Below are positions 3,814 through 53,516 of a stretch of 53,516 nt of DNA, piece after piece. The notes beneath the pieces are model-generated. The model had not been told where the DNA came from. It ran no database searches and saw nothing but the letters and a program-made list of their open reading frames with translations. Source of the stretch: a virus (lineage: Duplodnaviria; Caudoviricetes); IMG/VR virus record IMGVR_UViG_3300027743_000007, positions 1-53,516 of that record; one strand, given 5' to 3'. The position numbers were made by a program, and so were the translations under genes. How positions within the stretch are numbered: the stretch's first letter is position 1; each line of letters starts with the position of its first letter.

Positions 3814-4272
3814 TCACAGCAGCTCGCCCTGGCGCCCGGCCTCGGCGGCCCGGGCCGCCTTGACCTCGGCCGGCGACGGCCAGCGGTTGGCCCGGCCGAT
3901 AGCCCGGTAGGTGTCTTCGTACTGCGCACCGGCCGGGCACGAGCACGGCAGCACCGCCGTGCACGCGCACGCGGTGGCGCCCTTGCGGCGCGGGCAGCCC
4001 GGCCCGTGCTCGGTCCTCTCGAACCAGCCCGAGCCGTCGCAGCGCGAGCACTCGACTCGCACCGGGGCGCGGGTGGTGTGCAGCGAGCGGTAGGCCTCGA
4101 GGAATCGTCTGACCGACGGTGCCCGCTCAAGCTCCCGGCGCAGCCGCACGAACGCCGTGCCCGCTGGCCCCTCGTCCAGTAGCACGAGTTCCTCAATCCA
4201 CACCTCGGCGGTGGGCCCGCCGGCCCACGTCGAAACGATCCGAGCCGCTAGCTCTCGGGCCTGTTCCAACAT
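3814..4272 (-). CDS. Possible replication accessory (helicase-loader/inhibitor-like) protein with Zn-binding C-terminus
   Basis: W..EL..LD...A...L.R...RAPS pattern plus CSRC/CxC motifs; function inferred weakly. Confidence 0.4.
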   Translation of the reverse strand: MLEQARELAARIVSTWAGGPTAEVWIEELVLLDEGPAGTAFVRLRRELERAPSVRRFLEAYRSLHTTRAPVRVECSRCDGSGWFERTEHGPGCPRRKGATACACTAVLPCSCPAGAQYEDTYRAIGRANRWPSPAEVKAARAAEAGRQGELL

Positions 4273-4469
4273 CACGGTTCCTCCTGTTCGCTAGCGCGCT
4301 CGCAGCCGAGCACGTGCATGAGCGTTGTGACCGGGTGGCCGCACGCCGGGCACAGGTCGCCTCGGCGCGTGGTGGTGTCGCAGTGACAGCGGTGGTCGCC
4401 GTCGTGGGCGGCGTCGAGGTGGCAGGCGTGGTCGCCCCAGCCGTCGCTCCATTCGTAGCCGCACGTCAC
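4272..4469 (-). CDS. Small Cys/His-rich protein
   Basis: C...HACH...HDGDHRCHC...CPAC motifs. Confidence 0.45.
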   Translation of the reverse strand: MTCGYEWSDGWGDHACHLDAAHDGDHRCHCDTTTRRGDLCPACGHPVTTLMHVLGCERASEQEEP

Positions 4470-5343
4470 GGCGTCACCTCGCCGGCGGGCCGACCTCGGC
4501 GGATCATGGCCCTGAACCCGTCGGGGATCAGCGAGCGCAGGTAGCCGTCGTCGTCGCTGCGGGCCCAGATGATGCCGACGGTCTCGCCGGCGTCGTCGGT
4601 TATGCGCAGGCGCGTGAAGCCAGCGTCGATTGCGTGGTCGTGCGCCAGGTTGTTCGTGTACTCGGTTCGCGCCGGTCGAGGTCGTTCTGTCGGGTGAGCC
4701 GCGTTCTGGGTAGTTGTCTGAGCACGCTCCAAGGTTCCTCCGAAGCGCCGATCCGCCGAGGCCGGCCCGAAGGGTCGGCATCGGCGGTGAGAGCGCAACG
4801 CAGCCGGGGTGTCGCGTCCCTCAGGCCGCCTGGGACCTCCCTGGGGGCGCGAGCATCCATCCGCCCAACCGATTGCACGAGCTTCGTTCCACGGCCGACT
4901 CCCTACCACTGACGCGCCACCCGGCCTCATAGGCCGCTCCCTCGGGGCGCGATTCGTATACACGGCGTTACCGTCACGAGCCAGCCGGATCTTTCGGCCT
5001 CCCCCGGGGTGGGTCCGGGGGTCCAGAGTTCTGGTCAGCGGTCCCAATGCCGCGTCCTGGTGTGGGGCGTTTGGGCTTGCCCGGGCGCCCCACACCTCGC
5101 CGGCGGTGGTCGCGCCACCGAGTGAAATCGTCCGACTCGGCACGTTGAAGCTCGGTCGTGCCGTCGGCCCGTGTGATCTTGACCGAGCTGGCGCTCGGTC
5201 CCCAATAGCCGCCGCGGGTGCGGATGCCCTTAGGCCGCCCGGGCATCTACCGTCGCCCTCGGTGGGACGGCGCCCTTACGACCCCGATGAGGTCGTGGCG
5301 CTGCTGCTGCTCGGGCTCGCCCTGGCGGTCGTGCTCGTCGTGC

Positions 5344-5913
5344 TCAGTAGGTGACCCACGCCGACCAGCCCTGCACGGCCTTGACGTGAAGCGCGCAGTG
5401 CAGATTGAACCACGGGTCGTAGAGGTCGCTCGGTGAGCCGCCACAGTCCTCGGCCCAGAACGGCATGATCTGCATGAGCCCGGTGACGCCGCTGGCGCCG
5501 TTGTAGGCGCCGGCCTGGCAGCGGCTCTCGGCGTACATGATGCGGTCAACGGTCGGCCAGTCGGCGTCGGACCAGCCGGCCGAGATGGCGGTGCCGTACC
5601 ACTCGCCGCACGTACCGCCGGCGCTGCCGTTGTCGGGCTCGTCGGGTGTGACATCGGCGGGAATAACTTCACTGCCGTCGTCACCCTCGGATACATACGT
5701 TTCCGCGACGTTTGCGGCGGCCTCGGGTTCGGGCTCGACCACGCCGTCGTGGTCCCAGTCGAGGGTGCACAGCTCGGCGCACTCGTGGCGGGCCCACGCA
5801 ACGGCGGCGCGGGGTTCCTCCCGCCACCACCGAAGCCAGGCGCGGGTCTGGGCCGGCGAGCAGCCGGTGAGCGCGCCGGCGACGAGCGCGAGCGCGATGA
5901 GCCTCTTGGGCAT
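5344..5913 (-). CDS. Lipoprotein with lytic transglycosylase (SLT-like) domain
   Basis: Signal peptide with LTGC lipobox; catalytic AES and GLMQI motifs. Confidence 0.75.
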   Translation of the reverse strand: MPKRLIALALVAGALTGCSPAQTRAWLRWWREEPRAAVAWARHECAELCTLDWDHDGVVEPEPEAAANVAETYVSEGDDGSEVIPADVTPDEPDNGSAGGTCGEWYGTAISAGWSDADWPTVDRIMYAESRCQAGAYNGASGVTGLMQIMPFWAEDCGGSPSDLYDPWFNLHCALHVKAVQGWSAWVTY

Positions 5914-17661: not shown

Positions 17662-17861
17662 CCGACGGCGAGCGCCAGGCCGTGCGGGCGGCGATCCTCG
17701 ATTGCCGCCAGGACGTACTCGACCGCCTCGTGTTCGCGCTGACACTCACCGGCGAGGGCGATGAGGTCGAGAGCGAGATGCGCGCCACGCTGGCCACGGC
17801 GCCGCATGACGTACAGCTGTGGTGGGACGGCGAGTGCAACTGCGATGGGCACCTGAACTAA
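17658..17861 (+). CDS. Hypothetical protein
   Basis: Coupled ORF ending the operon. Confidence 0.5.
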   Translation: MTDGERQAVRAAILDCRQDVLDRLVFALTLTGEGDEVESEMRATLATAPHDVQLWWDGECNCDGHLN

Positions 17862-17866
17862 CGTAA

Positions 17867-17914
17867 ATATTCCCCGGCGAATATGTTGCCATCGGGTGCC
17901 CGCTGGTGGACACT
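17867..17914 (+). promoter_or_regulatory. Palindromic operator plus promoter (TTGCCA-N17-GACACT)
   Basis: ATATTCcCCGGcGAATAT directly upstream of the -35 element. Confidence 0.7.
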
Positions 17915-17920
17915 GATTAC

Positions 17921-18496
17921 TAGTTACGACATAGGTGTTCCGGAGGCGCAGTTGCTGAGCACGGCCGACGAGGGAACACCGAAAGACGACGAACGAGCGG
18001 CCCGGTGAATCACCTGGCTATGCGGATCAGCCGGCCTAAGTTTCCCCTCGGGGGTATGGCGACGGGGAGCCCCGCACCGGAGGACGACCGGCCGCTCGTG
18101 AGCAGGGCCAGGGTGGTAGCAAATCGGTACAAGCCCCGGGAACCTGAGACCCGGCCCTGCTCACCGTGAGACCGGCGAAGAGCCATCCACGGGCCCGTTG
18201 ACCACACCGCTGACGGCTAACGACCACCAGCCACCTGAGAATGGTGGAGGACCCCTGAACGAACGGCGTGCGAGGTGACCCGGTACGGGTGAGCGAAGCG
18301 GAAGAACGGCCAGAACGCCAAACGAGAGCATCCCCTGAGTGGCCACGACGGGGGGAGGGTAGGGCGGCAAGTAGGGCCGGCTCACGGGGTCGTCGGCACC
18401 ATTTCGGGAGCCGCAGGGCTCGCCGCCCGCAGCGATGCGAGGTGTGGCCCGAAATCTTGAAGCCCGCAGCCTCACCGGCTGCGGGCTTCGTTATTT
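17921..18496 (+). ncRNA. Putative large structured ncRNA (~570 nt)
   Basis: No credible ORF; lies between a promoter and a terminator; several long perfect stems. Confidence 0.55.
18459..18496 (+). terminator. Intrinsic terminator
   Basis: 13-bp stem gaagcccgcagcc/ggctgcgggcttc followed by gttattt. Confidence 0.75.
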
Positions 18497-18541
18497 CCAC
18501 CGGCGAATTATGTTGCCATCCGGGCGCTGACCGTGGACACT
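18492..18541 (+). promoter_or_regulatory. Operator plus promoter (TTGCCA-N17-GACACT)
   Basis: Copy of the repeated promoter family. Confidence 0.7.
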
Positions 18542-18547
18542 CAAGGT

Positions 18548-18712
18548 ATGACCAAGCGCCAGCCGAACGTTGACAACATCCTCGGGTGGAGCGCACCGCA
18601 CATCCACTTCTCGGCCGCGGCACTCAAGGCGCAGGACACGACCAACGCGCCACCGGCGACGATCCGGATGCGCCGCAACGAGCTGGGCGGCTGGGAGCGG
18701 GCTGAGGCCTGA
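18548..18712 (+). CDS. 54-aa leaderless hypothetical protein
   Basis: Not in the ORF track; ATG 6 nt after the -10 element; MTKRQPNVDNILGW... Confidence 0.5.
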   Translation: MTKRQPNVDNILGWSAPHIHFSAAALKAQDTTNAPPATIRMRRNELGGWERAEA

Positions 18713-18755
18713 CCTCCACGCCCTGGACCGCGCCGGCGTCTAACGTCCGGCAGCG

Positions 18756-19544
18756 ATGGCCACGACCCTCGCCCAGACGTACGTGGCAGCGCAGCCGATT
18801 GACGAGTTGACGCTGCACCCTCGCAACCCTCGCCGGGGCGACATCGCCCGCATCGCGGCGTCGATCAACGCCAACGGGTTCTACGGCACGGTGATGGTTC
18901 AGCGCTCGACGGGCTTCGTGATCTACGGCAACCACCGCCTTGAAGCGGCTCGCCAGGTCGGGCTCACGACGGTGCCGGCACTGTGGGTCGAGGTGGACGA
19001 CGACGCTGCCGCCCGCATGCTGCTGGCCGACAACGCCACCAGCGACGCCGCCACCTACGACGAGGCCGAGCTGGCCGCGCTGCTCGAAGCGCTCGCCGCC
19101 ACCGACCTCGGGCTCGCCGGCACGGGCTGGGATCAGGCCGAGGTTGACGAGCTACTCGCCGCGCTGGCCGAGCCGCCGGCGCCGGTGAGCGACGGCAGCC
19201 TGCTCGACCTCAGCTCGCTCGCCACCGAGCCGTCGCGCTCGGCGCTGCGGGGCGAGGTCTGGCGCATCGGGCCGACGAGCCACGACTACGGCGACGAGCC
19301 CGGGTGGACCGCCGGGCCGCATCACCTTGCCGTCGTGCCCGTCGCCTCGGGCTGGCCGACCTTCGGGCCGCTACTGACCGAGGGCGCGTACCTGCTGCCC
19401 TACCCGGGCCCGTACGTGGCCGTCACCCGACTCGCCCTGCGCAGCGCGGCGGTGTTCGTTCAGCCCGACGGCTACATCGCCGGCCACCTGCTCGACCAGT
19501 GGGTCAAGCTGTTCGGCGCCGAGCACGTTCATCAGCTGTCGTGA
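18756..19544 (+). CDS. ParB-like N-terminal domain protein linked to the DNA-modification cluster
   Basis: HPRNPR, SI..NGF, GNHR..AA and LADN motifs. Confidence 0.85.
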   Translation: MATTLAQTYVAAQPIDELTLHPRNPRRGDIARIAASINANGFYGTVMVQRSTGFVIYGNHRLEAARQVGLTTVPALWVEVDDDAAARMLLADNATSDAATYDEAELAALLEALAATDLGLAGTGWDQAEVDELLAALAEPPAPVSDGSLLDLSSLATEPSRSALRGEVWRIGPTSHDYGDEPGWTAGPHHLAVVPVASGWPTFGPLLTEGAYLLPYPGPYVAVTRLALRSAAVFVQPDGYIAGHLLDQWVKLFGAEHVHQLS

Positions 19545-20452
19545 AGGCCACCGGCGGCGCCTGGGATTGCGACGACTGGCCGGTGTGCTTCTGCGCCTCG
19601 GTGCTCGGGGCCTTGGAGGTCACCGTCAAGCACCACCCGTTCATCCTCGTGGCCGTCAACGAGATGCTGGCGCCGGGCACCTACCGCGCCGGGCGGGCGG
19701 CGCTCGACCGCTGGATCGCCGGCGGCGCCAAGGTCTTCCTCGACTCGGGCGTCTTCTGGCTGACGAACGAGCACAAGCGGGCCCACGGCATGACGATGGA
19801 CCAGGCGCTCGCCCTGGCGCCCAACGAGATCGACGGGTTCGATGAGCTGTTCGCCCGCTACGTCGAGCTGTGCCGGGCCTACGGCGACTCGCTGTGGGGC
19901 TACGTGGAACTGGACCAGGGCGGCAAGGACCGCAAGCGGGTCACCCGGGCCCGGCTGCAGGACGAGTACGGGCTGTCACCGATCCCGGTGTACCACCCGC
20001 TCAACGACGGGCGGGACTACTTCGATGAGCTGGTCGAGGGCTACGACCGCATGTGCTTCGGCAACGTCGTCCAGGCCAGCCCGGGCACCCGCCGGCGCCT
20101 ACTTCACATGATGTGGGAGGTGCGGGCCCGGCACCCTGACTGTTGGATTCACCTGCTCGGCGTACGCCCGACCGAGATGCTGCTGGCCTACCCGGCGCAG
20201 TCGGTTGACACCTCGTCGTACCTCGCCGCGCTGCGCTGGGCCCACGACACCGTGCGCACCTCGACCATGCTCAAGGCGGTGTCGAACTTCCCGCCGAACT
20301 TCGCCTACCGGCGCGGCGAACAAGACAGCTACGAAGAGGCCAACCGCCAGTGCTCGCACGCCGTGGCCGAGGCGCAAGCGACGTGGCGCGCCGTGCTGGC
20401 CGACCGGGCGGCGCTCGGGTGGTCGCCCTACGAACTCGGGCCGCTGGCGTGA
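19541..20452 (+). CDS. dpdA: DpdA-like DNA deazaguanine transglycosylase
   Basis: TGT-fold motifs FLDSG.F, ELD, IPVYH, IHLLG and SVDTSS; adjacent to que genes. Confidence 0.75.
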   Translation: MKATGGAWDCDDWPVCFCASVLGALEVTVKHHPFILVAVNEMLAPGTYRAGRAALDRWIAGGAKVFLDSGVFWLTNEHKRAHGMTMDQALALAPNEIDGFDELFARYVELCRAYGDSLWGYVELDQGGKDRKRVTRARLQDEYGLSPIPVYHPLNDGRDYFDELVEGYDRMCFGNVVQASPGTRRRLLHMMWEVRARHPDCWIHLLGVRPTEMLLAYPAQSVDTSSYLAALRWAHDTVRTSTMLKAVSNFPPNFAYRRGEQDSYEEANRQCSHAVAEAQATWRAVLADRAALGWSPYELGPLA

Positions 20453-20772
20453 CCGTCGTCAAGGTGCGCCACCGGGCGGTCGGCTTCCACCGCTGGCCGA
20501 ACCCTCGGCCCGGGCGCGAGTACCTCGGCCAGCGCCACCGCCACGAGTTCTGGCTAGAGGCCGCCGCCACCGTCACCGACGACGACCGCCAGATCGAATT
20601 CCATGACTTCAAGGCCGAGCTGGTCGCCGCCTTCCCCGGCGGGGAGATGGGAGATGCCTCGTGCGAAGCCATGGCCCGCGACGTACTGGCTCGCCTGCGG
20701 GCCCGTTTCGGCCCGGCCGTGGCGTGGTGCGAGGTCTGGGAGGATGGCGAGTGCGGGGCGCTGGTGTCGTGA
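20449..20772 (+). CDS. QueD-paralog T-fold protein, DpdL-like (putative CDG decarboxylase)
   Basis: GFH.WP, LGQRHRHEF, DRQIEF, SCE and EDGE.GA motifs. Confidence 0.6.
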   Translation: MTVVKVRHRAVGFHRWPNPRPGREYLGQRHRHEFWLEAAATVTDDDRQIEFHDFKAELVAAFPGGEMGDASCEAMARDVLARLRARFGPAVAWCEVWEDGECGALVS

Positions 20773-21188
20773 CGACGACGATCACCCGCACCTTCGAGAT
20801 TGACATGGCCCACTGCCTCGCTCAGCACGGCGGCCGGTGCCACGGGCTGCACGGCCACCGCTACAAGGTGGCGCTGACGACGACCGGCGACCTCCACGCC
20901 GAGGGCGTCGAGCAGGGCATGGTGCGTGACTTCGCCCACCTCCGCACGGCGCTCGAGGCGGCCGTCGGCCAGTACGACCACCGCTGCATGATGGCCGTCA
21001 CCGACCCGCGCACGCCGGCGACCGTCGAGGCCTTCGGCGCCAGCGTGGCCGTGGTTGACTTCGCTCCGACCGCCGAGAACCTCGCCGCCTTCTGGGGCGC
21101 GATGCTGGCGAGCCTGCTGCGGCCATTGGAGCTCGTCGGGCTCACGGTGTACGAGACCCCGAACTGCCGAGCGACGTGGGTGCCCTAG
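20769..21188 (+). CDS. queD: 6-carboxy-5,6,7,8-tetrahydropterin synthase
   Basis: AH...C..LHGH.Y, GMV.DF, DH, PTAEN and ET motifs. Confidence 0.92.
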   Translation: MTTTITRTFEIDMAHCLAQHGGRCHGLHGHRYKVALTTTGDLHAEGVEQGMVRDFAHLRTALEAAVGQYDHRCMMAVTDPRTPATVEAFGASVAVVDFAPTAENLAAFWGAMLASLLRPLELVGLTVYETPNCRATWVP

Positions 21189-21892
21189 TCGTCAACCGCG
21201 TCTACGACCGGGTGACCGTGCAAGGCGAGGGCCCCTTCGCCGGGCGCCGGTGCACCTTCGTGCGGCTGTGGGGGTGCAACCTGCACTGCGCCTGGTGCGA
21301 CACGCCCGAGACCTGGGACACGACCGGGCGCATCGGGCCGGCCTACGAGCGGGCCGCCAACGCCGCGCCGCTGCCGGTGGCCGAGGTAGCCGAGGCCGTC
21401 GCCGGGCTCGGGGTCGGGCTGTGCATCGTGACCGGCGGCGAGCCGCTGGTCCAGGCCGACCGCGTGGCCGAGCTGGCCCGGGCGCTGCGCCTCGCCGGCG
21501 TCGCCACGCACGTCGAGACCAACGGCACCATCGCACCGGGCGAGCTGATCGGCGCCGTCGAGCACTTCGTGGTGTCACCGAAGCTCGCCTCAGCCGACGC
21601 CGGCGCCCGGGCGCTACGACCGCCGGCGCTGTCGTCGTTCGGGTTCCTGGCCCGTCAGGACCGGGCGAGCTTCAAGTTCGTGGTCTGCTCGCCGGCCGAC
21701 CTCACCGAAGCGGCTCAGCTGTGCGACCGCTACGGCGTGCCCCACTCGGCGCGCTGGGCGATGCCCGAGGGCACCGACGCCGGCGCCGTTGGGCGCGGGC
21801 TCGGTGAGTGGGCCGAGGCGGCCATCGCTGCGGGCTTCAACGTTTCCACCCGGCTCCACGTTCTACTGTGGGGCGCTGAGAAGGGCCGATGA
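21176..21892 (+). CDS. queE: 7-carboxy-7-deazaguanine synthase (radical SAM)
   Basis: QGEG, CNLHCAWCDT, TGGEP, ETNG and SPK motifs. Confidence 0.93.
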   Translation: MGALVVNRVYDRVTVQGEGPFAGRRCTFVRLWGCNLHCAWCDTPETWDTTGRIGPAYERAANAAPLPVAEVAEAVAGLGVGLCIVTGGEPLVQADRVAELARALRLAGVATHVETNGTIAPGELIGAVEHFVVSPKLASADAGARALRPPALSSFGFLARQDRASFKFVVCSPADLTEAAQLCDRYGVPHSARWAMPEGTDAGAVGRGLGEWAEAAIAAGFNVSTRLHVLLWGAEKGR

Positions 21893-22836
21893 CCACCACC
21901 GTAGAGACCGGCATAGACCTCCCGATGCGGAGCAACGGCTCGGTGGGCCAGACACTGTCGTGGGCCGACGTGTCCGAGGCCGCCTACGACCTGGCTGCCC
22001 GCTGGCGCAACCGCCGGCCGGCGGCGGTGTACGGCATCCCGACCGGCGGCGCGCCGGTGGCGGTGATGGTGGCCGGCGCGCTGAGCGTGCCCCTTGCCGA
22101 CGAGCCCGGGCCCGGCGTGCTCGTCGTGGACGACCTGATCGACACCGGCCGCACGCTGACGCCCTACGTCGAGGCCGGCCACCTGACCGACGTGCTCTAC
22201 CGCAAGCCATGGTCGCCGGCGGCGCTGTGCCCCGAGGCCGAGGAACGGGACACGTGGCTGCGCTTCCCGTGGGAGCGCGCCGACGGCGCGCCGGTGGACG
22301 CCGTGCTGCGGCTCATCCAATTCATCGGGGACGACCCGACCCGCGACGGGCTGCTCGACACGCCGTCGAGGGTCGTGCGAGCGCTGGTCGAGATGACCTC
22401 GGGCTACGCCACCGACCCGATTGCCGTGCTCGGCACGACCTTCGACGTGGCGAACTACGACGAGCTGGTCGTCGTGCGGGCCATCCCGTTCTCGTCGCTA
22501 TGCGAGCACCACATGCTGCCCTTCGTCGGGCACGCCACTATCGGCTACCTACCCGACCGGCGGGTCGTCGGGCTGAGCAAGCTCGCCCGCCTCGTGCTGG
22601 CGCTCGCCCGCCGGCTGCAGGTTCAGGAGCGGCTGACGGCCGAGATCGCTGACTGCGTGATGAACGGCCTTCGCCCGCTCGGCGTCGGCGTGCTGGTCGA
22701 GGCCGACCACAGCTGCATGGCGATGCGAGGTGTCGAGCGCCGGGCGTCGGCCATCACCTCGGCGGTGCGGGGCGCGCTGGCGACTGACCGCTCGGTGCGG
22801 GCCGAGTTCATGGCCCTGGCCGACGGCCACCTGTAG
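21889..22836 (+). CDS. folE: Phosphoribosyltransferase-GTP cyclohydrolase I fusion
   Basis: N-terminal YGIPTGG and VLVVDDLIDTGRT; C-terminal CEHH, GLSKLAR, QVQERLT and H.CM.MRG. Confidence 0.9.
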   Translation: MTTTVETGIDLPMRSNGSVGQTLSWADVSEAAYDLAARWRNRRPAAVYGIPTGGAPVAVMVAGALSVPLADEPGPGVLVVDDLIDTGRTLTPYVEAGHLTDVLYRKPWSPAALCPEAEERDTWLRFPWERADGAPVDAVLRLIQFIGDDPTRDGLLDTPSRVVRALVEMTSGYATDPIAVLGTTFDVANYDELVVVRAIPFSSLCEHHMLPFVGHATIGYLPDRRVVGLSKLARLVLALARRLQVQERLTAEIADCVMNGLRPLGVGVLVEADHSCMAMRGVERRASAITSAVRGALATDRSVRAEFMALADGHL

Positions 22837-23156: not shown

Positions 23157-23759
23157 ATGACCACCACCATTGACACCGGCCTGCTGGCCGAGATCGCCGC
23201 CGGCAAGGTCGCCACCGGCGACAAGCGGCTCACCGTCGCCCGTGAAGCGGGCCTCGTGACCAAGCGCGGCGCCAAGCTCACGAAGGTCGGCGCCGAGGCG
23301 CTCGAAGCGGCTCTGAACGGCGACGTGCCGACGGTCAGCGTGACCGTCGAGGCGATGGAGCCGACCGCGTTCGCGGCGCTCGGTCGCCTGGAGCGCATCG
23401 AGCGGATGAAGGCTGAGCACGCCGCCACGAAGGCGTGGATCGACGCCGGCAGCAAGGGCACGGCGCCGGCGAGCCCGGTGACGACCGCCTTCGCTCTGGC
23501 CGCCATCGACGGCGGCAAGGGCATCAAGGCCAACGGCGGCGCCGGCGGCGGCACCGGCCGGTCCAACTTCACCCCCGAGGCGCTGGCCGACGTGCTCGTG
23601 CGCATCAAGGCGCTGCGGGCCGAGGGCAAGGGCTGGCCAACCATCGCCAAGACCTTCAACGAGACCGGCGTGCCGACCGCTAAGGGCGGCAAGTGGGCCT
23701 CGTCAACCGTGCTCGGCATCGCCAAGCGCAACGGCATCCCGACCCGTCGGGACGCGTAG
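23157..23759 (+). CDS. Protein with C-terminal recombinase-type DNA-binding domain
   Basis: G.GW.TIA..FN..GVPT.KGGKW..STV motif; AGGAG RBS. Confidence 0.7.
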   Translation: MTTTIDTGLLAEIAAGKVATGDKRLTVAREAGLVTKRGAKLTKVGAEALEAALNGDVPTVSVTVEAMEPTAFAALGRLERIERMKAEHAATKAWIDAGSKGTAPASPVTTAFALAAIDGGKGIKANGGAGGGTGRSNFTPEALADVLVRIKALRAEGKGWPTIAKTFNETGVPTAKGGKWASSTVLGIAKRNGIPTRRDA

Positions 23760-47941: not shown

Positions 47942-47991
47942 AGTATCCACCGGCGCTTATGCGAATGGCAACATATCCGCCGGTGGTATTT
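47942..47991 (-). promoter_or_regulatory. Operator plus promoter (TTGCCA-N18-GATACT)
   Basis: Repeat family copy. Confidence 0.75.
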
Positions 47992-48649: not shown

Positions 48650-48699
48650 AGTATCCACGGGCGGGTATTAGATGGCAACATACTCGCCGGCGAATATTT
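48650..48699 (-). promoter_or_regulatory. Operator plus promoter (TTGCCA-N17-GATACT)
   Basis: ATATTCGCCGGCGAGTAT palindrome upstream of the -35 element. Confidence 0.75.
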
Positions 48700-49255: not shown

Positions 49256-49304
49256 AGTATCCACGGGCGCTTATTGAATGGCAACATATCCGCCGGTGGA
49301 ATTT
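49256..49304 (-). promoter_or_regulatory. Operator plus promoter (TTGCCA-N17-GATACT)
   Basis: Repeat family copy. Confidence 0.75.
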
Positions 49305-50024: not shown

Positions 50025-50073
50025 AGTATCCACCGGCGGGTATTCAATGGCAACATTCTCACCGGCGATTATT
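50025..50073 (-). promoter_or_regulatory. Operator plus promoter (TTGCCA-N17-GATACT)
   Basis: Repeat family copy. Confidence 0.75.
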
Positions 50074-50550: not shown

Positions 50551-50600
50551 AGTATCCACCGGCGCATAACTGAATGGCAACATACTCACCGGGGATTATT
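50551..50600 (-). promoter_or_regulatory. Operator plus promoter (TTGCCA-N18-GATACT)
   Basis: Repeat family copy. Confidence 0.75.
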
Positions 50601-53393: not shown

Positions 53394-53516
53394 AGCCGCT
53401 CACTGGTGGCCCCTCTTGTCACCCACCTACCCCGGGGGTCACCGACTCGTCACGCTGGTCGAACCGGGCGGCGGAGTGCGTCCGGGCTGTCTCTCTCCCC
53501 GCCGCGAGCTAGCACG
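53394..53516. repeat. Terminal direct repeat (identical to 1-123)
   Basis: Exact match. Confidence 0.95.

Follow-up and report, generated by a model that had tools for sequence, protein, structure and literature searches.

Does a stretch of more than half a kilobase (kb) without a credible gene, placed between the genes of a virus, give a functional RNA, and of what kind would this RNA be? The question is raised by positions 17921-18496 of the IMG/VR record IMGVR_UViG_3300027743_000007 (Duplodnaviria; Caudoviricetes), which was analysed at its full length and is called the window here; it is a complete virus record of 53,516 base pairs (bp) with a terminal repeat and a guanine plus cytosine (GC) content of 71%. 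The original prediction, made from the letters of the DNA, had described the stretch as a candidate ornate non-coding RNA of about 570 nucleotides (nt) with its own promoter and terminator. Here it is proposed, with a confidence somewhat above even, that 17921-18496 is a discrete non-coding transcription unit that gives a structured RNA of modular make-up, for which no family has been described yet. It is considered probable that the stretch produces a functional RNA, and the stand-alone, trans-acting version of this RNA specifically is put forward tentatively, with less than even confidence.

Relatives were obtained from one metagenome scan with the ParB-like protein encoded 3' of the stretch, which gave the contigs L017 and L018, and the comparison comprises only three distinct genomic versions (window, L017 and L018) plus one partial metatranscriptome contig (X8). 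The coding DNA of L017 is 94% identical to that of the window overall and 89.4% at third codon positions, and that of L018 is about 81-83% and 77.3% identical, respectively.

Absence of coding signal

Positions 17862-18547 form the longest run without codon periodicity in the 53.5-kb genome. The GC by codon position is flat across this run, at 0.5-0.8 in all three phases, whereas the flanking genes have a GC at third codon positions (GC3) of 0.87-1.0. None of the five open reading frames (ORFs) inside the run has a Pfam match, and none has a PHROGs match (eight proteins scanned, the three flanking genes being likewise without match); three ORFs, of 54 amino acids (aa) on the plus strand and of 194 and 103 aa on the minus strand, have no homologue among 5.8 billion protein clusters. 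The sole plus-strand ORF common to the window and L017 has 8 nucleotide changes, which lead to 6 amino-acid changes and 0 synonymous ones. Insertions and deletions of 62-65 nt, not multiples of 3, are seen in the comparison, and the ORF across the conserved core (module B, see below) has a different C-terminus in each genome. The lack of a credible ORF, as it had been claimed, is borne out by the flat codon-position GC and by the absence of homologues in Pfam, PHROGs and the protein clusters, and a check for a conserved protein-coding frame found none, all changes in the shared plus-strand ORF being non-synonymous.

Promoter family and terminator

The unit begins at a promoter (P1) that belongs to a family of seven copies in the window, located at 17865-17914 and 18493-18541 on the plus strand (P1 and P2) and at five sites on the minus strand at 47.9-50.6 kb. 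The layout of the family is a box CCGGCGaaTATG (also written AATAttCnCCGGCGaaTATG), followed by TTGCCA, 17-18 nt and GAYACT, with the start 6-7 nt further on. The exact pattern TTGCCA-N17-GACACT occurs twice in the window, compared with an expectation of 0.01, and the looser word of the upstream box has 6 sites against 0.13 expected, the addition of 18513 giving the family of seven. The box of P1 is a direct repeat with 18493-18508. The box common to the seven promoters looks like a shared operator, judging from its sequence, and it is reminiscent of the repeated repressor sites in phiC31.

An ATG or GTG is found 6-7 nt after the -10 element in six of the seven promoters, which for this reason fit leaderless messenger RNAs (mRNAs). 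P1 is the sole copy without a start codon at +1, having GATTAC-TAG there, as the original prediction had noticed for its TTGCCA-N17-GACACT. The same is seen in the relatives, where the equivalent site reads ATC-AAG-TGA in L017 and ATT-GAG-TGA in L018, with no usable start either; the identity of the P1 region (17865-17914) is 46/50 with L017 and 42/49 with L018. As a member of the sigma-70-type family of this phage, P1 carries all the sequence elements and only the start codon is absent. From the spacing of the start codons at the sister promoters, transcription from P1 would start at 17921/17922. The second plus-strand copy, P2, drives a 54-aa gene via a leaderless ATG at 18548 and marks the end of the non-coding unit. 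In L017, P2 is degenerate (TTGTCT ... GACGAT), and the small gene of 54 aa that follows P2 in the window has as its counterpart an unrelated longer ORF. Each minus-strand copy directly abuts the stop codon of the preceding small gene, and no terminator-like site was found on the minus strand between the five sister promoters.

At the 3' end, the predicted terminator of 13 bp was confirmed as a perfect stem (arms 18459-18471 / 18477-18489) with a T-rich tail. A terminator scan recognised 18458-18490 as an intrinsic terminator, having 14 pairs (10 G-C) and the tail TTATTTCCAC, and over the 2.5-kb region it returned 2 sites against 0.7 in shuffles. L017 has a terminator at the equivalent place (L017 778-807), which is an unrelated 13-pair hairpin with the tail TTGTCTTTCT.

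Stems and composition

The five stems named in the original prediction, including that of the terminator, are all perfect, the other four being 17934-17941/17973-17980, 17993-18002/18090-18099, 18098-18109/18153-18164 and 18401-18408/18448-18455. They are in excess of chance: the counts of perfect inverted repeats within 160 nt, set against 1000 dinucleotide shuffles, were 6 against 1.63 expected for k of at least 8 (P=0.006), 3 against 0.12 for k of at least 10 (P=0.001) and 2 against 0.01 for k of at least 12. The purine-rich character and the recurring CCTGAG/TGAG words were likewise recovered from composition and shuffle counts. Purines make up 56.8% of the region, in the top 0.4% of 576-nt windows, and the A content is 21% compared with 13.7% in the genome; CCTGAG occurs 3 times against 0.23 (2000 shuffles) and TGAG 7 times against 2.44 expected (P=0.0045).

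Modular layout in the relatives

The comparison with L017 and L018 divides the stretch into four modules, A to D (Table 1). The original description of a non-coding unit with a family promoter and a terminator stands, but its ornate RNA of ~570 nt is seen to be modular instead of indivisible, L018 having no more than its initial ~180 nt, which there form a leader joined to the operon that follows.

The module A region (17921-17992) is unrelated in the relatives (28/70 identical in L017 and 27/70 in L018). Both have an unrelated stable hairpin in its place, at the same distance from the start, and the 5' hairpin of L018 folds with a z-score of -5.6, with 0/200 shuffles as good. It is proposed that module A stabilises the 5' end of the RNA. 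Module B is identical at 101/107 positions in L017 and at 104/107 in L018, and its inner core (18004-18089) at 84/86 in both; its predicted fold, one long irregular hairpin or several small ones, is the same alone and in all three contexts. Module C is found in the window only, being not in L017 according to the alignment, and module D is absent from L018. Because L018 lacks everything after B (window 18100-18714, with modules C and D, the terminator, P2 and the 54-aa gene) and the end of B runs there straight into the 42-nt leader of the ParB-like gene, B in L018 is the 5' leader of the ParB-like/DpdA-like/QueD/QueE/FolE operon. Whole modules are in this way present or absent among close relatives, as seen for window 18100-18714 versus L018 481-482 and for window 18098-18162 versus L017 about 478-480.

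Junctions of the same kind were found in public sequencing runs. In the soil run X4, one Logan contig has 18091 joined to 18163 via 9 letters and a second has 18091 joined to 18753 via 47 letters, the two sharing a 98-nt node equal to 17995-18091; the presence of both junctions in run X4 shows that the two forms exist side by side and did not arise as artefacts of a single assembly. In run X3, of a different study, a 211-nt contig is identical to 17904-18114. X8 is a metatranscriptome (RNA sequencing) library of another study, and its 206-nt contig includes 18004-18089 with 2 differences in 86 and flanks that differ from the window. The parts without cover in runs X2, X3 and X8 are uninformative.

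Table 1. Coordinates of the features of the non-coding unit, its promoter family and the genes named in the text
Feature	Position	Strand	Description
Upstream box of P1	17865-17885	+	AAATATTCCCCGGCGAATATG; imperfect palindrome centred on CCGG; from alignment of 5 promoters
Promoter P1	17886-17914	+	-35 TTGCCA, 17-nt spacer, -10 GACACT
Module A, 5'-proximal hairpin	17934-17980	+	8-bp perfect outer stem GGTGTTCC/GGAACACC
Module B, conserved core	17993-18099	+	closing stem 17993-18002/18090-18099; inner core 18004-18089
Module C hairpin	18098-18164	+	12-bp perfect stem GTGAGCAGGGCC/GGCCCTGCTCAC; inner hairpin with loop AACCUGAGA
Module D, 3' domain	18164-18457	+	about 294 nt; several local hairpins; 282/294 identical to L017
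Module D hairpin CCACC-UGAGAAU-GGUGG	about 18230-18248	+	
Module D 6-bp stem with 14-nt loop	18331-18356	+	loop with palindrome GUGGCCAC; closed by UCCCCU/GGGGGA
Module D three-way element	closed by 18401-18408/18448-18455	+	
Intrinsic terminator	18458-18497	+	GC-rich 13-14-bp hairpin, 5-nt loop, tail GTTATTT
Promoter P2	18493-18550	+	box 18493-18512, -35 18513-18518, -10 18536-18541
Minus-strand family promoters	47942-47990, 48650-48697, 49256-49303, 50025-50072, 50551-50599	-	
Large serine recombinase	12112-13707	-	Resolvase, Recombinase and zinc-ribbon domains
ParB_N-domain protein	18756-19544	+	directly 3' of the non-coding unit
DpdA-like protein	19541-20452	+	phrog_887 'queuine tRNA-ribosyltransferase', E 2e-19
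QueD	20769-21188	+	
QueE	21176-21892	+	
FolE	21889-22836	+	with N-terminal phosphoribosyltransferase-like part

Searches beyond these contigs gave few additional sequences. The scan of IMG/VR with the promoter pattern recovered one true relative, L015, which is about 92% identical and 12.5 kb long and does not reach this region, and exact-word scans of IMG/VR with three words of B (18004-18073) and one word of D had 0 matches each. Positions 17862-18540 had no blastn match in 50,697 phage records (E 1e-5), B alone had only chance matches of 19-29 nt in the phage records at E up to 10, and the whole RNA had no match in 72,556 plasmids. In the genomes of 185,579 species, the B 24-mer had 0 matches and the promoter pattern had only 2 low-GC chance matches (Clostridium and a Flavipsychrobacter metagenome-assembled genome). 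No viral relative was found for the neighbouring 209-aa protein, and no similarity was found in distant DpdA/ParB loci, either by nhmmer on L006-L013 or by blastn of the window on L019-L022.

Selection and structure-preserving change

Relative to L018, module B has 2 substitutions in 105 nt, fewer than the 23.8 that would be expected at the rate of third codon positions (P=9e-10) and the 12.6 at that of second positions (P=1.7e-4). It is an island of near-identity, having the unalignable module A as its left flank and a right flank that is different in each genome, a position that fits a constraint on B itself. Module D has 12 substitutions in 294 nt relative to L017, where the third-position rate predicts 31.1 (P=4e-5), and these substitutions have no 3-nt periodicity. 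The inner 86 nt of B are taken here, as the best reading of the alignments, to be the selected and functional part of the RNA.

Changes that preserve stems were found around this core, and the evidence that speaks for structure in particular is confined to the closing stem of B and the borders of the modules. At the pair 17994/18098 of the closing stem, L017 has U-A where the window and L018 have C-G, and the bulged C18003 finds a partner in an extra G of L017. In X8, the ten bases on each side of the core differ from the window yet pair, giving a closing stem of 10 pairs with one G-U, as read from the contig ends next to the core. Of 35 pairs predicted for B, 31 do not vary at all and 1 has a two-sided change; the other 3, in the closing stem, are lost in one sequence through a break or a gap. 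At a larger scale, module C is gained or lost as a complete hairpin and module A is swapped for another hairpin. Together with the exchange of the terminator and a core far better conserved than the genes around it, these features are what a structured RNA would be expected to show. The collection of homologues with covariation, which had been named as a check of the RNA, gave one compensatory pair in the closing stem of B and no two-sided covariation in the helices of D.

In module D, RNAalifold found 5 one-sided changes that keep pairs as G-U. One of them is in the hairpin 18408-18421 (stem GAGCC/GGCUC), where L017 has G-U for G18410-C18419 and the loop GCAA for GCAG. The 8-nt palindrome in the 14-nt loop (18337-18350) changes from GUGGCCAC in the window to GUGCGCAC in L017 by a central GC-to-CG swap that keeps its self-complementarity; this is a single event in two sequences, to which attention was drawn only afterwards. 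L017 does not keep the palindrome GGGCCC at 18191-18196, and the change of TCG to CGC at 18390-18392 breaks 2 pairs of the best fold of the window.

Two candidate interactions were rejected. The pairing of loop 18341-18344 with 18388-18392, two sites that differ in L017, was not counted, its complementarity being kept only with a one-base register shift, and a role as antisense regulator of the phage's own genes was discarded, the longest complementarity elsewhere in the genome being 14 nt (E about 0.1).

Genome, host and gene neighborhood

The window is the genome of a soil phage, of temperate siphovirus type according to Pfam, NCBIfam and PHROG scans, by which it also encodes RecT, a YqaJ-type exonuclease, tape measure, tail collar and amidase, in addition to the large serine recombinase. 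A second protein of 200 aa with only a partial Recombinase domain is encoded at 23157-23759 on the plus strand.

The cluster at 18756-22836 on the plus strand includes, besides the genes of Table 1, one for a 107-aa protein (phrog_17812); no QueC homologue was seen among the proteins scanned. Phages use the ParB-like/DpdA-like/QueD/QueE/FolE-type gene set for putting 7-deazaguanines into their own DNA, and the gene content of the cluster suggests such a modification of the DNA of this phage. The matches of its ParB are mostly to Arthrobacter and Mycobacterium phages (66/76 and 5/76 records, respectively), and these matches, together with the high GC and the leaderless promoters, suggest an actinobacterium as the host.

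At the left end of the genome, an 85-nt perfect inverted repeat (25-109 / 1632-1716) encloses a segment of 1522 nt, with one arm lying within the 123-nt terminal repeat (1-123 = 53394-53516). It is also found in the relative L015 and could mark an invertible or mobile segment. Two short stretches with weak codon periodicity, at 1400-1760 and 1880-2100, are near this end.

A second run of ~600 nt without codon periodicity is present on the minus strand at 4660-5260, between a small gene at 4272-4469 (minus strand) and the SLT-domain gene at 5344-5913. The minus-strand fold of 4640-5300 has a z-score of -3.06 (0/20 shuffles as good), and the region has no Rfam match up to E 1 and no family promoter. 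Of the 6 minus-strand GGCCTRWG words of the genome, 3 lie here, namely GGCCUAAG, GGCCUAUG and GGCCUGAG, and the core B also carries GGCCUAAG. This run could represent another structured RNA or else a gene in decay.

Weighing of the evidence and alternative explanations

Several observations weigh against a discrete, structured RNA at 17921-18496. The folding energies are modest, with a z-score for the whole stretch of -2.39 on the plus strand, where 2/100 shuffles fold as well, and of -2.09 on the minus strand, and for B alone of -1.74 and -1.66 on the two strands. The substitutions of D are not below the all-coding rate (P=0.19), and recent exchange among mosaic phages could partly explain the identity of B. 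The internal helices of B, being invariant, give no evidence either way, and with only three distinct homologues the support from covariation is thin; the RNAalifold consensus of D has 0 two-sided changes. The single-sequence minimum-energy folds of D in the window and in L017 disagree, and the 12 substitutions are distributed as 5 unpaired, 5 kept and 2 broken in the window fold (permutation P=0.02) and as 5 unpaired, 2 kept and 5 broken in the L017 fold (P=0.46). An A opposite C mismatch in the 5' hairpin of L017 would be G-U on the other strand. L018 is without the terminator and D, and B is there an mRNA leader and not a stand-alone RNA. The X8 contig, the one hint of transcription, is from a different genome, and an RNA library can contain DNA.

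The alternative that survives best, although on the unlikely side, is that B would be a cis-acting leader of the DNA-modification operon. It would act by modifying RNA polymerase for anti-termination like put of phage HK022, by which P1 transcripts would pass the terminator at 18458-18490, or as a riboswitch or attenuator for a metabolite of the pathway; D, the terminator, P2 and the small gene would be a later insertion. B has P1 just upstream and one and the same operon downstream of it, all on one strand, in each of the three genomes, and in L018 it ends 42 nt before the start codon of the ParB-like gene with no promoter in between. The order of promoter, structured RNA, terminator and genes is the put arrangement, and a conserved core closed by a variable stem, as B has, is typical of aptamer domains. 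Partial read-through is also seen in the Pleft transcripts of phage L5. However, P2 is a full family promoter directly after the terminator in the window, so that read-through is not needed there, and the constraint on D is left unexplained by a leader. No Rfam riboswitch or other family matches B, even alone at E up to 10, and the L018 leader fold shows no sign of an alternative terminator/antiterminator pairing. The covariance model of B (R1) has no match in the related loci searched (L022, a duplicate of the L007 contig, was left out) nor in 5 DpdA-bearing viral records, one of them complete; B is by this measure not a general leader of such operons, with the limit that an empty result in these records proves little.

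It is very improbable that the stretch is a decaying remnant of early genes or a spacer, in which the hairpins would come from GC-rich sequence and the conservation from recent recombination. The sister promoters all drive small genes and P1 may once have done so, the folding z-scores are modest, large insertions and deletions separate the relatives here, and the left parts of L017 and L018 are nearly identical, which shows recombination. This explanation has to account for B as an island of near-identity that is found in a fourth context (X8) with a re-paired stem, for the start codon missing at +1 in all three genomes, for two unrelated terminators at the same place and for perfect stems in excess of shuffles, and no protein similarity is left in any frame.

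Very improbable is also a function of the core at the level of DNA, as a binding site for the ParB-like or another protein or as a single-stranded DNA hairpin for replication or priming. B adjoins the ParB_N-domain gene, and L017 and L018 contain GTGAAACA, which we take to be one half of the canonical parS palindrome; this is a half-site only, and chance alone would give an 8-mer about 1.6 times in a genome as large as this one. The compensatory stem changes would preserve DNA hairpins too, the folding energies are alike on the two strands, and the swap of GTGGCCAC to GTGCGCAC would also keep a DNA palindrome. In contrast, the G-U/U-G pairs of the plus strand, in B, in the closing stem of X8 and at G18410-U18419 of L017, are A-C mismatches on the other strand and ordinary pairs in duplex. 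A promoter and a terminator frame a transcription unit, the core was found in an RNA library, and the B 24-mer is absent from the genomes of the 185,579 species. By this absence, B is not a copy of a host attachment site, and a phage attachment site (attP) was ruled out on this ground and from the integrase, a large serine recombinase encoded about 4 kb from B.

The weakest explanation is that the region encodes one or more small proteins, which is extremely improbable in spite of the ORFs that can be drawn mechanically (104 aa on the minus strand, 76 and 54 aa on the plus strand), two of which persist, altered, in L017, considering a GC3 of 0.5-0.7 here against at least 0.85 in the real genes of this phage, the 6 amino-acid-level changes of the shared plus-strand ORF, the C-terminus over B that differs genome by genome and the absence of any family or homologue.

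Comparison with known RNA families

As the original prediction had anticipated, no family could be assigned to the RNA, whole or in part. Rfam 15, with 4227 families including GOLLD, ROOL, OLE, HEARO, riboswitches, ribozymes, 6S, SRP and transfer-messenger RNA (tmRNA), gave 0 matches at the gathering score for the whole window. With E up to 10, positions 17700-18700 had 8 chance-level single-hairpin matches (E 0.6-9.8), seven of them to microRNA and one to the Thr operon leader, and B alone had 1 chance match (E 9.5); 11 related loci had 0 matches. Neither transfer RNA (tRNA) nor tmRNA genes were found in the 53.5-kb genome by ARAGORN.

Like GOLLD and ROOL, with which it had first been compared, the unit is phage-borne, of 500-800 nt, non-coding, and has many hairpins and A-rich linkers. 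Membership of these families is not indicated, there being no match to their models even at E up to 10 and no tRNA gene in the genome, whereas GOLLD and ROOL are often near tRNA islands (PMC12286853). A likeness with GOLLD and OLE is the self-complementary loop word that has its central GC changed to CG in a relative; in the same source, symmetric intermolecular kissing loops were deduced from the change of GC to CG in GOLLD L21a and of GGCC to GAUC or AGCU in OLE L9.3, whereas here there is one swap between two sequences.

The nearest known counterpart in function is the Pleft RNA of the cluster A mycobacteriophages L5, D29 and StarStuff. The genome here appears likewise to be of the temperate actinophage type, and the unit has 576 nt without coding signal, a family promoter with an operator-like box and a terminator. 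The Pleft RNA measures about 500 nt, its ORFs do not exceed about 30 codons, and it comes from a regulated early promoter; it is abundant and stable, with about 90% of transcripts ending at the 3' region and the rest entering the early genes (PMC5712189). The unit differs in having no sequence similarity to it (blastn, 50,697 phage records, E 1e-5) and in its location mid-genome before the 7-deazaguanine cluster, while the Pleft RNA is at the genome end. The Rhodococcus phage WC1 is likewise reported to have three non-coding regions with high expression (PMC10986025).

Two shorter leader elements were also considered. With put of HK022 the unit shares a structured element between an early promoter and a terminator, before early genes; the put RNAs are of ~70 nt with two stem-loops, downstream of PL and PR, which are early promoters (PMC9378689). 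They act on the RNA polymerase of E. coli, and B differs from them in its length of about 105 nt and its other predicted fold. B in L018 recalls the preQ1 riboswitches of the queuosine pathway by its place, heading as 5' leader an operon that carries QueD, QueE and FolE homologues. They differ from it in that B has no Rfam riboswitch match and, in the window, is separated from the genes by the terminator and P2; preQ1 aptamers are also smaller than B.

As far as searches of the open-access literature went, a modular RNA around an ultraconserved core of 86 nt was not found described. The unit is of a known kind, that of phage long non-coding RNA from an early-type promoter, without a family.

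Proposed working of the unit and its significance

For the discrete non-coding unit preferred here, the following working is proposed. The host sigma-70-type promoter P1, one of seven with an operator-like box, would start transcription at about 17921. The stable hairpin A would be made first and probably shields the 5' end, and the core domain B of 105 nt would follow, as a binding module for a protein or RNA polymerase. The variable hairpin C would come next, and after it the accessory domain D of 294 nt, with its UGAGA-type loops and self-complementary loop. The strong intrinsic terminator would end most transcripts, and P2 would restart transcription for the ParB-like/DpdA-like/QueD/QueE/FolE genes. 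The unit would work in this respect like the ~500-nt Pleft RNA, with a co-regulated early promoter and a minority of transcripts reading through into the downstream genes. In this scheme we infer the accumulation of the RNA, the partner of B and the timing of expression, as well as the start site.

A more far-reaching proposal, considered decidedly unlikely, has two forms. In the first, the unit would open a new class of large phage RNAs of modular build, with the ultraconserved 86-nt core common to contexts that are otherwise unrelated, T-loop-like UGAGA hairpins and a symmetric kissing loop (GUGGCCAC changing to GUGCGCAC) for self-association like that of GOLLD, ROOL and OLE, which are RNA-only homo-oligomers held by kissing loops and A-minor contacts. 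In the second, B would be an RNA polymerase-binding or ligand-binding leader that governs the 7-deazaguanine genes.

Only a few long non-coding RNAs are known from phages, GOLLD, ROOL and the Pleft RNA of L5 and D29 among them, and a function has been assigned to almost none. The unit of this genome is a compact case with a defined promoter and terminator, in which natural variants (A and B in L018; L017 without C) mark the modules. Should the core have RNA polymerase, a host protein or a metabolite as its partner, a new regulatory RNA would stand ahead of DNA hyper-modification genes, and if the palindromic loop drives self-association, RNA-only assemblies would be extended to high-GC soil phages. 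If none of these holds, the locus would still illustrate clearly how these phages assemble their early transcription units from modules and exchange them.

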